Source: an uncultured virus (IMG/VR IMGVR_UViG_3300025390_000008) (Duplodnaviria > Heunggongvirae > Uroviricota > Caudoviricetes). Taken from it: a stretch of DNA of 64,000 nt. The DNA is taken from the IMG/VR virus record IMGVR_UViG_3300025390_000008; one strand, written 5' to 3'. The notes under the pieces are model-generated. The model was not told where the DNA came from and searched no databases. It saw only the letters and a program-made list of their open reading frames with translations. Both the position numbers and the translations under genes were made by a program. This document shows positions 5,625 through 9,717 of this stretch, one piece after another (the first letter of the stretch is position 1; each line of letters opens with the position of its first letter).

Positions 5625-6425
5625 ATGAAAATTGAAAACATCAAGCTAGAACACATTCGTATCGATCGCGGCACTCAATCACGCGAGAAGGAAAGTCAAG
5701 AGCAGATAGACAACATCGCTGAGGCGATTAACAACGGCGAAGAGATCGACCCAGCAGTTATCTTTGACGACGGCCAATACTTTTTTCTGGCAGACGGTTT
5801 CCACCGCTATCACGCCCACAAGAAGCAAGGCCAAGCCACCATGCCCTGCATTCGCAAGCTGGGAACCCTGCGTGACGCCCAGATCTACGCCTTCCAAGAG
5901 GCAAACAAATTCCAAAAGAGCCTGCCCCGTAGCCATGCTGACAAGCGCCGCTGTGTGAACTGGTGCTTGGATGACTTGGAATACCAAGACCTTGCCGACC
6001 GCGAGATCGCCCGAATGGTAGACGTTAGCCATGTGTTGGTGAGCCGTATGCGTAAGGAGCGCATGACGCCCAAGGAGGCCAAACCTGCCAAGCTAAAGAA
6101 CGTGGTCGAACCCAAGCTGGAATTATTACCACCTGAGAAAGTGGAATTATTACCAGCAGCCAACGACATGGACGCCGAAGCCATGAATTATTTGCAGGAA
6201 GAGAACCAGCGTCTTGAGAAGCAGTTGGCCGTGGTAGCGATGGAGGCCACGCCCGAAGAGAAAGAATTGGCCAAGACCATGATCGAAGAGCTGCAAGAGG
6301 AGGTCAAGATGCTCCGCATTGAGAACCAGTCCCTCAAGATCAGTCGTGATACTTACCAAGCAGAGAATGCCCAGCTCATCAAGCAGGTGGGTATGCTTCA
6401 GCGACAACTAAAAAAAGCAGCGTAA
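5625..6425 (+). CDS. ParB-like protein (ParB N-terminal domain, HTH, coiled coil)
   Basis: QSR..LADGFHRYHA (ParB box II-like), EAN..LP, HTH LADREIARMVDVSHVLVSRMR, C-terminal coiled coil. Confidence 0.8.
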   Translation: MKIENIKLEHIRIDRGTQSREKESQEQIDNIAEAINNGEEIDPAVIFDDGQYFFLADGFHRYHAHKKQGQATMPCIRKLGTLRDAQIYAFQEANKFQKSLPRSHADKRRCVNWCLDDLEYQDLADREIARMVDVSHVLVSRMRKERMTPKEAKPAKLKNVVEPKLELLPPEKVELLPAANDMDAEAMNYLQEENQRLEKQLAVVAMEATPEEKELAKTMIEELQEEVKMLRIENQSLKISRDTYQAENAQLIKQVGMLQRQLKKAA

Positions 6426-6469
6426 GGTAGCCCAAGCTGGCGGGCTAGTGCCAGCAGTTGAGGGATTGT

Positions 6470-8851
6470 ATGAGTAGCTTAAATTTGCGCGACTACCAAG
6501 CGCAGGCGATAGAGTCTCTGCGAAGGGGCTTTGCGGCGGGATACAGGACACAGATCCTGGTTGCGCCCACAGGGGCAGGCAAGACCGAGATGGCCATTGC
6601 CCTGCTAGAGGCGGCCATGAACAAGGGCAGTAACAGCTCGATGATCTTGGACCGCATTGTCTTGTGTGACCAGACCAGTAAGCGGCTGGAGAAATACAAG
6701 ATTGATCACGGCGTTCTACAGGCTGGGCATTGGCGATACCGACCGTATGAAAAGATACAGGTCTGCTCGGCCCAGACGCTGGAGAGTCGCGGGGATTTCC
6801 CTGACCTCAAGCTCATGATCGTAGATGAGTGCCACCAAACCAGAGCGGCCACGGTGGAGTTCATTAAGAACAACCCGAGCATCAAGGTGATCGGCCTAAC
6901 AGCCACGCCCTTTACCAAGGGTCTTGGAAATATTTACGAGCATGTGGTCTCGCCCATCACGACCAAGCAGCTGGTGGAGCAGGGCAGTCTGGTTCCGCTT
7001 CGTGTATTCATTGCCAAAGAGATCGACATGACGGGGGCCAAGAAGGTCGCTGGCGAGTGGTCTCAGAAAGAATCCACAGAGCGCGGGCTCAAGATCACGG
7101 GTGACGTGGTGGCTGAGTGGATCAAAAAGACCCATGAGATATTCAAGCGTCCGGTCAAGACCGTGGTGTTTGCCTCGGGGGTAAAGCACGCAGAGGACTT
7201 GTCACGCAAGTTTGCGGAGCAGGGATACAACTTCATCAGCATTAGTTACAAGGATGCCGATGACTTCAAGCGTGACGTGGTCGAAGACTTTTCCAAGCCC
7301 GATACAGAGATTCATGGGCTCATAGCCACAGACATATTGACCAAGGGATTTGATTGTGTTCTGGAGGGATCTCGCGTCCTGACTGAAAGAGGACTTGTTG
7401 CCATTGACCAAATTTTGTTAAATGATAAGATATGGGATGGTGTGGAGTTTGTTTCCCATCATGGTGTTATTTACAAAGGAGTGAGAGATGTCATCACATA
7501 CGCCGGACTTACAGCCACCCCAGATCACAAAGTCAAAACAGCACAAGGATGGATTGAATTTGGTGAATGTGCGAGACGTGGAATTCCAATCATTAAAACC
7601 GGAAATGGTGGGCAAGCGATTCAAGAACATGAAGGTCAGTTCTCCTTTGGTCTATCTTGCCAACAGACAGACCAACAAAGAGCAACTGATGTGCGAGTGT
7701 CTGGATTGTGGCCGCTTGGAATTGGTGCTTATTTCCATGTTGTATGCGCCTCAATGGGCTGGTTGTTCGGATTGCGCTGCTCCACAGTGGCTTGTTCGTC
7801 GATGCAAGGCGCAGAAAGCCAGATGCACGGATCCATTGCATCCGTCTTATCGGGATTATGGCGGACGAGGAATTCGCTTCATGTTCAGCAGTCCAAGACT
7901 GGCGGCGCAATGGATAAAGAAGAATATTGGAATACCAGAAAAAATATCAATCAACATACATCTGGACAGGATCAACAACAATGGTCATTACGAACCTGGA
8001 AATCTACGTTGGTCAACTCGGCAAGAGAACAACTCTCATACGCGTCGAAGCAAGTATGTAGAGCGATTTCATTTGTTTCGTCTAAATTATCCAGAGATCA
8101 AATACGCAGACAAGACCCTCAGAAATTTGATGGGCTACGGCCTCAGCGACCAGCAGATCATCGAGAGATTCCATCTTCCATCAGACAAGCCAAAGGGCGT
8201 GTATGGGACATACTCAACTGCGGTCCCAGAAATTGCTTTACTTGCGAAGACCTCCTGATTCATAACTGCGCCGATGTTTTTATAGGTATATCTGCTAGGC
8301 CCTTCAGTAAATCATTGTCGTCGCACATTCAACAGATGGGTCGGGTCATGCGTCCGTCTCCTGGAAAATCCTTCGGTGTCTGGCTTGACCATTCGGGCAA
8401 CTACATTCGTTTCCGAGAGGATTGGGATGATGTGTTTGCGAACGGTGTATCTGAGCTGGATGATGGCAAGGAGAAGGCCAAGAAGGAGAAGACAGACAAG
8501 GAGAAGGAGGCGGCCAAGTGTCCGAAGTGTGGCGCGTTGTGGCGGAGCAGTAGTGACACCTGCGCCCATTGTGGCTACATCAAGGAGACCAAGAAGAAGT
8601 TGGCAAGTGTTCCAGGTGAGATGGAAGAATTAACAGCCAATGCAAACCGAGACGAGAAGCAGGAGTTTTGGTCTGAGCTGCAATACAAAGTGAAGGTTGA
8701 GGGTTGGAACCCAGGTCGAGCGGCGCATACCTACAGGGACAAGTTCGGGGTTTGGCCTAGGGGTTTACACGATAACGTTCGAGTGCCAAGTTTGGCCACA
8801 GAGCGGTTCATTAAGTCTAGAATTATTGCCTACATGAAAGGGAAGAAGTGA
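6470..8851 (+). CDS. SF2 DEAD/DEAH helicase with C-terminal Zn finger, containing an intein
   Basis: LRDYQ, APTGAGKT, IVDECH, GLTATP, TKGFD, QQMGRVMR, CPKC..CAHC. Confidence 0.92.
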   Translation: MSSLNLRDYQAQAIESLRRGFAAGYRTQILVAPTGAGKTEMAIALLEAAMNKGSNSSMILDRIVLCDQTSKRLEKYKIDHGVLQAGHWRYRPYEKIQVCSAQTLESRGDFPDLKLMIVDECHQTRAATVEFIKNNPSIKVIGLTATPFTKGLGNIYEHVVSPITTKQLVEQGSLVPLRVFIAKEIDMTGAKKVAGEWSQKESTERGLKITGDVVAEWIKKTHEIFKRPVKTVVFASGVKHAEDLSRKFAEQGYNFISISYKDADDFKRDVVEDFSKPDTEIHGLIATDILTKGFDCVLEGSRVLTERGLVAIDQILLNDKIWDGVEFVSHHGVIYKGVRDVITYAGLTATPDHKVKTAQGWIEFGECARRGIPIIKTGNGGQAIQEHEGQFSFGLSCQQTDQQRATDVRVSGLWPLGIGAYFHVVCASMGWLFGLRCSTVACSSMQGAESQMHGSIASVLSGLWRTRNSLHVQQSKTGGAMDKEEYWNTRKNINQHTSGQDQQQWSLRTWKSTLVNSAREQLSYASKQVCRAISFVSSKLSRDQIRRQDPQKFDGLRPQRPADHREIPSSIRQAKGRVWDILNCGPRNCFTCEDLLIHNCADVFIGISARPFSKSLSSHIQQMGRVMRPSPGKSFGVWLDHSGNYIRFREDWDDVFANGVSELDDGKEKAKKEKTDKEKEAAKCPKCGALWRSSSDTCAHCGYIKETKKKLASVPGEMEELTANANRDEKQEFWSELQYKVKVEGWNPGRAAHTYRDKFGVWPRGLHDNVRVPSLATERFIKSRIIAYMKGKK
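7355..8266 (+). mobile_element. intein (304 aa) in helicase motif V
   Basis: begins C (CVLEGSRVLT), block B TATPDH, block F VWDILN, ends LIHN followed by Cys+1; removal restores TKGFD|CADV. Confidence 0.92.
7488..8258 (+). CDS. HNH homing endonuclease encoded in the +1 frame inside the intein
   Basis: AAGGAG-6nt-ATG; CECLDCG, CSDC, RCTDP..YRDYGGRGI, LDRINNNGHYEPGNLRWST..ENN. Confidence 0.88.
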   Translation: MSSHTPDLQPPQITKSKQHKDGLNLVNVRDVEFQSLKPEMVGKRFKNMKVSSPLVYLANRQTNKEQLMCECLDCGRLELVLISMLYAPQWAGCSDCAAPQWLVRRCKAQKARCTDPLHPSYRDYGGRGIRFMFSSPRLAAQWIKKNIGIPEKISINIHLDRINNNGHYEPGNLRWSTRQENNSHTRRSKYVERFHLFRLNYPEIKYADKTLRNLMGYGLSDQQIIERFHLPSDKPKGVYGTYSTAVPEIALLAKTS

Positions 8852-9717
8852 TGGATTTCCTGCAGTTCGCAAGGGCCAAAGGGCTCTTGATGGAAACGTT
8901 ACCACCGATCGGGGTATGGAAAAGATACGCAACAGAAGACCATCCATCTAAGCGCAACGGCTCTGCCAAATACATGGGCACACATGGATTCGTAGTCAAC
9001 CATGCAATGGACACAAGCGCGGACACCTGGAGGCCAGACAGTTCTTATGTAATGGACGCTGCAAAGCAAGCCGAGCTGGCCAGACAGGCGCGTGAAGCTG
9101 AGTTACGAACACAGGAATTGAACCGAGAGGCGGCGCAGAAGGCGGCATGGATACTGAAGCAGTCCCGCTTCGGCCGCCATAAGTATCTGATCAACAAAGG
9201 ATTTCCAGACGAGGAGGGTAATGTCTGGAACCAGGATGGTCGGTCATTGTTAATAATTCCAATGCGGCTCGGTGCGCGGCTGGTCGGATGCCAAATGATT
9301 GACGAGCAGGGGCAGAAGAAATTTCTGTTCGGCCAACGGACAAGTAATGCGTCCTTCGTGTTCGACAACAAAGGCCCCAACATATTGTGCGAGGGGTATG
9401 CCACAGCGTTGAGCGTTCGGGCTGCCTTACGCGCCATGAAGCGGCGGTATACGATTCATGTTTGCTTTAGTGCGTCCAACATGATCAAGGTCGCTGCTGG
9501 TCTGCCATCGGGGCTGGTGATTGCGGACAATGATTCGTCGGCCACAGGGGAGAGGGCGGCCAAGCAGATTGGTTGGCCATACTGGATGTCGTCGGTCATA
9601 GGCAATGACGCAAACGACGATATGCAGGCCCAGGGAATCTATAAATTCTCTCAGGGCCTGGTCAGGTCATTGCACCTTCTGGTTGGCCACAATGAACGGT
9701 TGAACGGCCAGAATTAG
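8851..9717 (+). CDS. Toprim-domain DNA primase
   Basis: LLIIPM..LVGCQMI..KKFL, ILCEGYATALS, IADND, NDAND. Confidence 0.85.
   Translation: MDFLQFARAKGLLMETLPPIGVWKRYATEDHPSKRNGSAKYMGTHGFVVNHAMDTSADTWRPDSSYVMDAAKQAELARQAREAELRTQELNREAAQKAAWILKQSRFGRHKYLINKGFPDEEGNVWNQDGRSLLIIPMRLGARLVGCQMIDEQGQKKFLFGQRTSNASFVFDNKGPNILCEGYATALSVRAALRAMKRRYTIHVCFSASNMIKVAAGLPSGLVIADNDSSATGERAAKQIGWPYWMSSVIGNDANDDMQAQGIYKFSQGLVRSLHLLVGHNERLNGQN

Follow-up and report, generated by a model that had tools for sequence, protein, structure and literature searches.

The virus record IMGVR_UViG_3300025390_000008 of IMG/VR is a 64,000-nt stretch of DNA from an uncultured member of the Caudoviricetes, and this whole stretch is called the window in what follows. 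One of its genes, which encodes a superfamily 2 (SF2) helicase, contains an intein of 304 amino acids whose nucleotides are coding twice: the helicase frame (frame 0) runs open through the intein, and the +1 frame of the same strand holds an open reading frame (ORF) for a 256-amino-acid protein of the HNH type, a putative homing endonuclease (HE). The two-frame layout was observed directly and is confirmed. We document here its anatomy, its conservation across a family of relatives, the selection that acts on each frame, the predicted folds of both products and a 912-nt presence/absence polymorphism. With good confidence, we interpret the element as a mobile cassette formed by a mini-intein and a separately translated, overlapping HNH nuclease.

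The element had been proposed from the letters alone (the sequence-only reading), and its landmarks were all located: the Cys1 codon of the intein (7355-7357), the block B motif TATPDH, the block F motif VWDILN, and the terminal His-Asn (8261-8266) followed by the +1 Cys (8267-8269). From 7355, frame 0 reads CVLEGSRVLTERG... TATPDH ... VWDILN...LLIHN/C, the slash marking here and below the point where intein and extein meet. The HNH ORF is clean, lies in the +1 frame ((7488-7355) mod 3 = 1), overlaps blocks B and F and stops 8 nt upstream of the intein end, as that reading had described; the Shine-Dalgarno (SD)-like AAGGAG that it had noticed 6 nt before the ATG, spelled by intein codons for Lys-Gly-Val, is also in place. 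Its description of the stretch between the splicing halves as filler without a domain is accurate too, with Ser, Gln and Arg making up 25, 21 and 16 of 188 frame-0 residues.

Relatives were collected by scanning IMG/VR with an alignment of homologues of the +1 protein, which gave 418 stretches; the best 80 were examined. Intein ends were mapped in 75 of these viral loci and in the window, the other five being cut by contig ends or disturbed by an indel in locus L047, and sequences below 97% identity formed a non-redundant set of 64. Throughout this set, the residues on which a class 1 intein depends are kept: Cys1, D285 and N304 are invariant (64/64), as are T55 and H58 of block B across the alignment, SN replaces the terminal HN in some relatives, and the residue after the intein is Cys or Ser in all 76 sequences with mapped ends. 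The distance between the HNH stop and the intein end is exactly 8 nt in 66 of these 76. Seven others (L023, L026, L031, L032, L033, L050 and L068) have an HNH ORF that extends 7-31 nt past the intein end into codons of the C-extein.

Both frames are open across the family. The host frame, which is offset from the HNH frame by one base to the left, was stop-free over the whole HNH match in 79 of the 80 viral loci and belonged there to open frames of 349-1233 amino acids, the third frame containing 4-29 stops; this layout was kept down to about 35% identity. A control scan of one genome per prokaryotic species yielded 79 loci, of which 37 showed the embedded layout with no stop in host ORFs of 570-1271 amino acids and one was ambiguous; the remaining 41 are more distant, free-standing relatives with 1-52 stops in the corresponding frame. 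No relative with the HNH protein in frame with the intein was seen among the 80 viral and 79 genome loci, and a search for longer proteins fused in frame, which carries little weight, gave a single protein, a fusion of HNH and thymidylate synthase without an intein. The lone exception among the viral loci, L047 (2990-3010), has lost 1 nt in the zinc-ribbon codons of the HNH ORF, and both frames are broken. This deletion joins the frame of the helicase and intein N-terminal half with that of the HNH ORF, and the helicase is broken as well. The locus is a dead copy or else was misassembled.

The same data bear on the possibility that the nuclease is really in frame and that compensating indels on either side of it, introduced in sequencing or assembly, have produced the layout. 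We found nothing that speaks for it, and the explanation is almost certainly wrong, as the sequence-only reading had held: both frames are open in the window, contigs of four sequencing runs align with the window across the intein and have no indel within 7355-8266, and assemblies made independently agree on the phase (79 of 80 viral loci, 37 genome loci and 2 GenBank phage records).

The openness of the host frame exceeds by far what the HNH protein sequence would leave to chance. When the +1 ORF of the window was shuffled synonymously, 15.5 host-frame stops were expected and none of 300 shuffles was stop-free; over the 64 inteins, no stop was observed against 12.1 expected per ORF, and 0.07% of the shuffles were stop-free. 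A stop in the host frame can arise solely as T/AA, T/AG or T/GA across two adjacent HNH codons (the slash here separating codons), and avoiding T at one synonymous position thus keeps the helicase frame open. Accordingly distributed codons are found: a T-ending first codon occurs in none of 4322 such risky codon pairs of the 64 inteins, compared with 3139 of 12433 other pairs (25%). Free-standing controls showed no such avoidance (303/1471 risky pairs, 903/3803 others). These counts indicate that synonymous codon choice in the HNH ORF is what keeps stops out of the host frame.

Selection differs between the frames along the intein. Identity and the ratio of nonsynonymous to synonymous differences (pN/pS) were measured on a single codon-anchored nucleotide alignment (Table 1). 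The most variable codon position is frame-0 position 3 in the splicing halves and frame-0 position 1, which is position 3 of the +1 frame, in the middle. Nine close pairs were also compared over the middle region, where the rate ratio dN/dS was 0.05-0.10 in the +1 frame (eight pairs computable, one saturated), with an apparent frame-0 dN/dS of 1.9-4.0. The predicted purifying selection on the middle of the +1 frame is thus evident, and argues that the nuclease is a functional protein and that the frame-0 linker is constrained solely to remain open. We also considered whether the linker is selected for hydrophilicity, its value lying slightly to the hydrophilic side of the synonymous-shuffle null (-0.83 versus -0.73; z below -2 in 20 of 64 sequences). 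This was set aside, as it is probably a by-product of the Gln, Lys, Glu and Arg codons that replace would-be stops.

Frame-specific selection also speaks to whether the HNH gene might be the decaying, frameshifted relic of a nuclease domain that was once in frame. Shifts of frame have indeed been proposed as a route between intein architectures (Gosselin et al., bioRxiv 2025). A relic is nevertheless highly improbable, since 79 of 80 viral loci, at identities of 35-100%, have an undamaged +1 ORF, its dN/dS is that given above, and the lone longer protein among the relatives is the unrelated thymidylate synthase fusion.

Table 1. Coordinates of the intein, its two reading frames and the host gene in the window, measures of constraint by region, and insertion sites of the intein family.
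Feature	Position	Strand	Frame 0	Frame +1	Remarks
N-extein	6458..7354	+			SF2 helicase N-terminal part (ResIII/DEAD, start of Helicase_C); last motif TKGFD
Intein, class 1 features (C1, TxxH, terminal HN, +1 Cys)	7355..8266	+			304 aa, frame 0
N-terminal splicing half, blocks A and B	7355..7630	+			frame 0 under purifying selection; pLDDT about 96 for residues 1-85
Frame-0 linker	7631..8200	+			stop-free, S/Q/R-rich, predicted disordered, no amino-acid constraint
C-terminal splicing half, blocks F and G (VWDILN...LLIHN)	8201..8266	+			pLDDT about 95-97 for residues 278-304
C-extein	8267..8851	+			helicase remainder from +1 Cys; motif VI QQMGRVMR, C-terminal zinc ribbon
Shine-Dalgarno-like AAGGAG	7476..7481	+			6 nt before ATG 7488; intein codons AAA GGA GTG (K-G-V)
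+1-frame ORF, putative HNH-type homing endonuclease	7488..8258 (stop codon included)	+			256 aa
HNH N-terminal leader, residues 1-34	7488..7589	+			read over block B; apparent passenger; pLDDT 57-62
HNH N-terminal beta-rich domain	7590..7781	+			four invariant Cys: C71, C74, C93, C96
HNH-like core, residues 99-189	7782..8054	+			RCxNP, YGGRGI, LDRINNNGHYEPGNLRW...N
Helical C-terminal domain, residues 190-232	8055..8183	+			helices 191-200, 208-216, 221-228, pLDDT >90
Mean pairwise aa identity	7355-7630		0.37-0.64	0.19-0.39	
Mean pairwise aa identity	7631-8206		0.13-0.38	0.21-0.60	
Mean pairwise aa identity	8207-8251		0.67	0.57	
pN/pS, before HNH ORF	7355-7487		0.42	1.06	
pN/pS, block B overlap	7488-7630		0.56	1.01	
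pN/pS, middle	7631-8200		1.27	0.51	
pN/pS, block F overlap	8201-8258		0.37	0.98	
Insertion site TKGFD/C					window helicase
Insertion site 5 residues further on					same helicase motif as TKGFD/C
Insertion sites WLDH/S and WL/CH					same helicase family as window
Insertion site GKxD/CLxLD					other SF2 helicases
Insertion sites, two or three, around motif B					family A DNA polymerases
Insertion site PDVV/CIDYAD					protein without Pfam match

Structure prediction separates the intein into two confident parts and a disordered one. AlphaFold2, run on an input alignment of the 64 frame-0 intein sequences, gave a predicted local distance difference test score (pLDDT) of about 96 for residues 1-85 and 278-304, and below 50, with no secondary structure, for residues ~90-270. 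When the confident part was compared with the PDB by Foldseek, the top matches were exclusively mini-inteins (DnaX, RecA, DnaB, gp41-1 and Npu DnaE) at probability 1.00, with a best E of 6.7e-4; a sequence profile of the family also aligned with block B of the Mtu RecA mini-intein (E 0.008). The sole profile match of the intein segment was PHROG 26005, whose function is not annotated (1.6e-9), and the PHROG search of frame 0 gave no match past the first 81 intein residues. These models support a mini-intein fold composed of an N-terminal half of ~92 amino acids, a C-terminal half of ~22-27 and a disordered linker of ~190 residues, and a precursor so equipped would be expected to undergo protein splicing.

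The +1 product is predicted to be a well-folded protein. The 256-residue ORF, which had been called an HNH protein by eye, matches PHROG families of HNH endonucleases over its residues 102-219 (phrog_3377, 4.2e-19; phrog_374, 3.8e-18; phrog_2081, 7.5e-11), the endonuclease VII PHROG scored just 1.3e-3, and no LAGLIDADG match was seen. Its AlphaFold2 model, built from 77 sequences, has a mean pLDDT of 88, mostly exceeds 90 over residues 35-250, and is of low confidence solely in the first ~30 residues, which are read over block B. Compared with BFVD, the model had 75 matches at E<=1e-3, headed by phage HNH/HTH homing endonucleases. For residues 33-89, the VIA matches were small beta-barrel domains, to which we attach no functional claim, and the helical C-terminal domain may possibly bind DNA. 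The family core reads RCxNP...YGGRGI...LDR[I/V][D/N]NxGHYEPGNLRW...N, with D160, R161, Y168 and N172 invariant in 77/77 sequences and N164 and N184 conserved in at least 90%. In the protein collection searched, 184 homologues of the +1 protein were found, most of them called as stand-alone ORFs of 250-270 amino acids on contigs of ~1 kb. Most of these contigs measure ~0.9-1.2 kb, close to the length of the intein, as would fit assembly-graph bubbles caused by presence and absence of the intein in populations.

The start signals suggest how the nuclease is translated. A +1-frame stop (TGA, 7482-7484) lies 3 nt before the ATG in the window. In each of the 64 sequences, an ATG or GTG lies after the last +1-frame stop and ahead of the conserved core; the first of these has an SD core 4-11 nt upstream in 31 of 64, the rate for random in-frame positions being 13.4%, and in 50 of 64 some candidate start has one. 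Two clade-specific combinations of SD and ATG recur, each built from intein codons: the window's combination, AAGGAG-N6-ATG, comes from K-G-V-x-[D/N]-V, and AGGAGGT-N8-ATG comes from Q-E-V-I-x-Y-A. The Asn, Asp, His or Tyr codon before the conserved Val ends in T, thereby creating the ATG, in 14 cases and in C in 2. Separate translation by internal initiation at ATG 7488 is on these grounds the most likely mode. Neither of two further scans added to this picture: predicted promoters numbered 5 against 2.5±1.7 expected, which is not significant (they include two overlapping weak sites on the + strand at 7398-7431), and folding of the RNA around the start (z +1.30) revealed no special structure, being at most mildly consistent with an accessible ribosome-binding site (RBS).

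The distribution of the family would fit a mobile element. The intein is always accompanied by the +1 nuclease and occupies many sites in different host proteins (Table 1): among 15 representative hosts, ten are SF2 helicases, four are family A polymerases and one is unassigned. In GenBank phages, the seven best tblastn matches all fall inside annotated DNA polymerase genes, those of Gardnerella phage vB_Gva_AB1 and of six Streptococcus (pro)phages; in the two of these polymerase coding sequences (CDSs) that were examined, it is the +1 frame of the CDS that matches, and the nuclease is unannotated. Free-standing relatives in GenBank phages bear the depositors' label HNH endonuclease. On a tree of the nuclease core, embedded and free-standing forms require 3 changes, against ~36 when labels are shuffled; with just 91 columns, the tree demonstrates clustering and not the number of origins.

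Alleles with and without the intein were both found. The helicase of record MW202426.1 reads TKGFD-VPDTMIGV and lacks residues 300-603, that is, 304 residues, and the window's N-extein can be aligned to this intein-free homologue as far as TKGFD. In the lake-water run X20, which is not marked as a candidate source of the window, one contig joins 7353 to 8291 through 25 other letters, is exactly 912 nt shorter and reads GFD-VPDVLIGV-SARP, and a second contig contains the intein; we claim coexistence alone, contig depths not being shares of cells. The differences between these two contigs cluster in extein codons beside the insertion site (7324-7348 and 8326-8439) and include +1 Cys versus Val (CADVFIGI versus VPDVLIGV). 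Co-conversion tracts would be expected to leave such clusters, and so would alleles that have become immune to cutting.

We propose the following mechanism. The helicase gene harbours a presumably mobile class 1 mini-intein, with a frame-0 linker that needs nothing except the absence of stops, and the identical nucleotides in the +1 frame encode a separate 256-amino-acid HNH-type nuclease made of a four-Cys beta domain, an HNH-like core and a helical domain. Ribosomes would enter at ATG 7488 through the SD spelled by the Lys-Gly-Val codons and terminate 8 nt before the end of the intein. The nuclease presumably cuts or nicks the intein-free helicase allele (TKGFD/VPDV), repair would then copy the whole two-frame cassette into the cut allele, and protein splicing would restore the helicase. 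The polymorphism and the distribution among hosts are thus what homing into the intein-free allele by the +1 nuclease would be expected to leave. The sequence-only reading had suggested that the arrangement uncouples nuclease expression from the host protein while a stop-free shadow frame preserves splicing; layout, openness and selection argue for this, and its two biochemical parts, separate translation and splicing, are probable on the strength of sequence features.

Several results weigh against this interpretation. Neither Pfam nor NCBIfam matched the 304-amino-acid intein segment (E<=0.1 or 1) or the +1 ORF of the window, and Pfam HNH_3 was matched by just one of the 77 members of the nuclease family. 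Foldseek returned no match of the nuclease model in the PDB at E<=0.001, sequence searches of the PDB with the +1 ORF and with its profile gave no meaningful match, and the best relevant VIA structure match, the HNH enzyme PacI (3m7k_A), was weak (Z 4.7, root-mean-square deviation 2.9, 76 aligned). For the beta-beta-alpha-metal fold of HNH enzymes, the structural matches thus diverge between BFVD on the one hand and the PDB and VIA on the other. The +1 product also shows no amino-acid constraint where it overlaps blocks B and F (pN/pS ~1). There, the intein appears to dictate the sequence, with the leader and tail of the nuclease as passengers, and the KPKGVYGT tail can be read as the shadow of block F; since the intein frame alone is constrained in both overlaps, the true double constraint is small. 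Finally, the locus was in no RNA run among the sequencing runs, in 14 of 64 sequences none of the candidate ATG or GTG codons has an SD core, and the start position varies across the family, alignment columns -12, 0, +12 and +81 all being used. The expectation that homologues keep the SD and ATG of the window thus holds for the presence of a start codon and, in most, of an SD core, and fails for their position.

An objection to nuclease function concerns the active site. The general-base His of the HNH motif is presumably to be expected directly after the conserved Asp; this placement is taken from the motif and not from an alignment to a solved enzyme. At that position the family has the invariant R161 (D160-R161, window 7965-7970), an Arg equally present in embedded and free-standing relatives, so that the nuclease chemistry may be atypical or absent. 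Together with the lack of a Pfam HNH match in 76 of 77 members, this Arg would suit a +1 protein that is no homing nuclease at all and is instead a derivative of the His-Me finger that binds DNA or has been domesticated in another way, with the intein spreading by other means. We consider this unlikely, as the protein always accompanies the intein across at least three types of host protein and many insertion sites, is under strong purifying selection, and belongs to an element whose plus and minus alleles coexist; its free-standing GenBank relatives are annotated as HNH endonucleases, and its structural neighbours are HNH homing endonucleases. Nuclease activity of the +1 product is accordingly probable in our view.

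The start signals invite another explanation, in which programmed +1 ribosomal frameshifting from the intein frame makes the HNH protein as a fusion to the N-extein and the N-terminal part of the intein, perhaps cleaved at the N-terminal splice junction. The variable start position and SD strength, with the 14 sequences that have no SD core, would agree with it, as would a leader over block B that is unconstrained in the +1 frame, and L047 reads as just such a fusion after its 1-nt deletion. That deletion also breaks the helicase frame, however, and so looks like damage or an assembly error, while every sequence has an ATG or GTG between the last +1 stop and the core, and in 50 of 64 such a start follows an SD core. 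The TGA just ahead of the ATG in the window is part of a pattern of stop followed by ATG that is found in many relatives, and no slippery site is known, though no search aimed at one was made. Frameshifting is for these reasons quite unlikely as the source of the protein, and internal initiation is the reading that we favour.

A joint account that reaches further can be offered tentatively, with slightly less than an even chance of holding in full. A free-standing HNH gene with an I-HmuI-like layout would have entered a mini-intein very few times, and the two-frame cassette would then have moved as a unit to roughly ten sites. Its host proteins would be SF2 helicases, family A DNA polymerases and one or more others, and it would be spread over environmental phages, Streptococcus and Gardnerella (pro)phages and contigs of assemblies named for many phyla. 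It would be the largest and widest family of inteins with an overlapping nuclease, separately translated, maybe with Arg in place of His in its active site, and would have stayed unannotated because gene callers allow one frame per locus.

Canonical inteins carry an HNH or LAGLIDADG nuclease in frame, as a domain of the intein polypeptide. The window's intein shares with them the class 1 splicing residues, the Hint fold and a position within conserved motifs of replication proteins, and differs in that its nuclease is a separate polypeptide from another frame. The idea of an overlapping HE reportedly goes back to Gorbalenya in 1998, as traced by Phillips et al. The premise that inteins always carry their nuclease in frame is outdated: preprints describe out-of-frame cases with EndoVII-like and LAGLIDADG nucleases. 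Gosselin et al. (bioRxiv 2025) report actinophage inteins with the homing endonuclease in another frame or strand, 63 of about 784 inteins being non-canonical, all in actinophages, and propose that a free-standing endonuclease invaded the intein. These resemble the window's element in being bona fide inteins with a same-strand nuclease in another frame between the splicing halves and a frame-0 stretch that has no recognisable fold. Their nuclease, encoded in 'reading frame 3', is EndoVII-like and matches 1E7D over residues 1-67, whereas ours is of the HNH type and in the +1 frame; their set is confined to actinophages, whereas the present family spans environmental phages, Streptococcus and Gardnerella (pro)phages of GenBank and genome-assembly contigs named for many phyla. 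Phillips, DeSimone and Gogarten (bioRxiv 10.64898/2026.09.14.751524) describe a cyanobacterial dnaX intein with a LAGLIDADG HE in a +2 ORF, which likewise combines an overlapping same-strand HE ORF with a frame-0 region that AlphaFold predicts as disordered, SD motifs ahead of the HE start, an omega that depends on the frame, and coexistence of intein-free and intein-bearing alleles in lake metagenomes. That case involves one cellular gene in one phylum, in contrast to phage genes and many sites here. Common to the described non-canonical inteins and ours are thus a same-strand nuclease ORF, a stop-free and unstructured host frame and constraint on the nuclease frame in the overlap; the nuclease family and the phase differ.

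Two other arrangements are related in part. The ShiLan-type insertions that Arsenault et al. (Genes 2025, PMC11855218) describe in phage DNA methylases also hide an HNH gene in another frame of an insertion whose host frame is stop-free, with the mode of translation an open question there as well; they have no splicing domains, are thought to be retained in the protein and have no detectable RBS, unlike the window's element with its complete intein blocks and SD. In the fractured genes of Dassa et al. (2009, PMC2677866), a free-standing homing endonuclease gene lies between the halves of a split intein, again apart from the splicing halves and in phage-like replication genes of metagenomes, but the host gene is physically split and the endonuclease gene stands outside its coding frame, whereas in the window a continuous host frame overlaps it. 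In the literature examined, in so far as its available parts go, we found neither a complete intein whose +1 frame encodes a nuclease of the HNH type nor a family this broad, and the supplementary tables of the preprints may hold cases. What sets the element apart from the described cases is its nuclease family, its phase, an overlap that reaches deep into blocks B and F with an embedded RBS, and a much wider distribution; the concept itself is already in the preprints.

Selection that can be measured maintains the overlapping-frame intein nuclease in hundreds of phage genes, which amounts to a stable design, and the design has a simple signature, the absence of T-ending codons before AA, AG or GA in the nuclease frame. 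Annotation pipelines miss such nucleases, as the examined polymerase CDSs of Streptococcus and Gardnerella phages illustrate, each carrying one unannotated. For intein evolution, the family supports the view that splicing came first and nucleases invaded later. It also provides natural mini-inteins that tolerate a linker of ~190 residues, useful for engineering, a series of related nucleases apparently retargeted to different sites, and a probable RBS internal to a translated ORF, useful for studying how nuclease dosage stays low.

The host helicase ORF (6458..8851) encodes 797 amino acids and is stop-free over its full length. Its N-extein matches ResIII (4e-21), DEAD (3e-9) and Helicase_C (8e-5) of Pfam, the last match being interrupted at helicase residue ~299. 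The ORFs at 5625-6425 and 8848-9717 lie on either side; their counterparts in MW202426.1 are annotated as parB and primase-like, which makes the helicase region a phage replication module, and L047 has a primase-like neighbour as in MW202426.1. The helicase of MW202426.1 itself (L165:32-2587), labelled by its depositors a type I restriction-modification protein, contains another insertion of ~337 amino acids directly after the Walker A GxGK, with a LAGLIDADG-like string (ILGAWLGDGS), and this is probably a canonical intein at a different site of the same helicase. Three long host helicases of 1163-1233 amino acids (L017:284-3850, L051:840-4538 and L054:687-4175) carry a second, canonical intein besides the two-frame intein; Pfam matches the second inteins (Hom_end_hint, Intein_splicing and Hint_2) and leaves the two-frame inteins of the same proteins unmatched.

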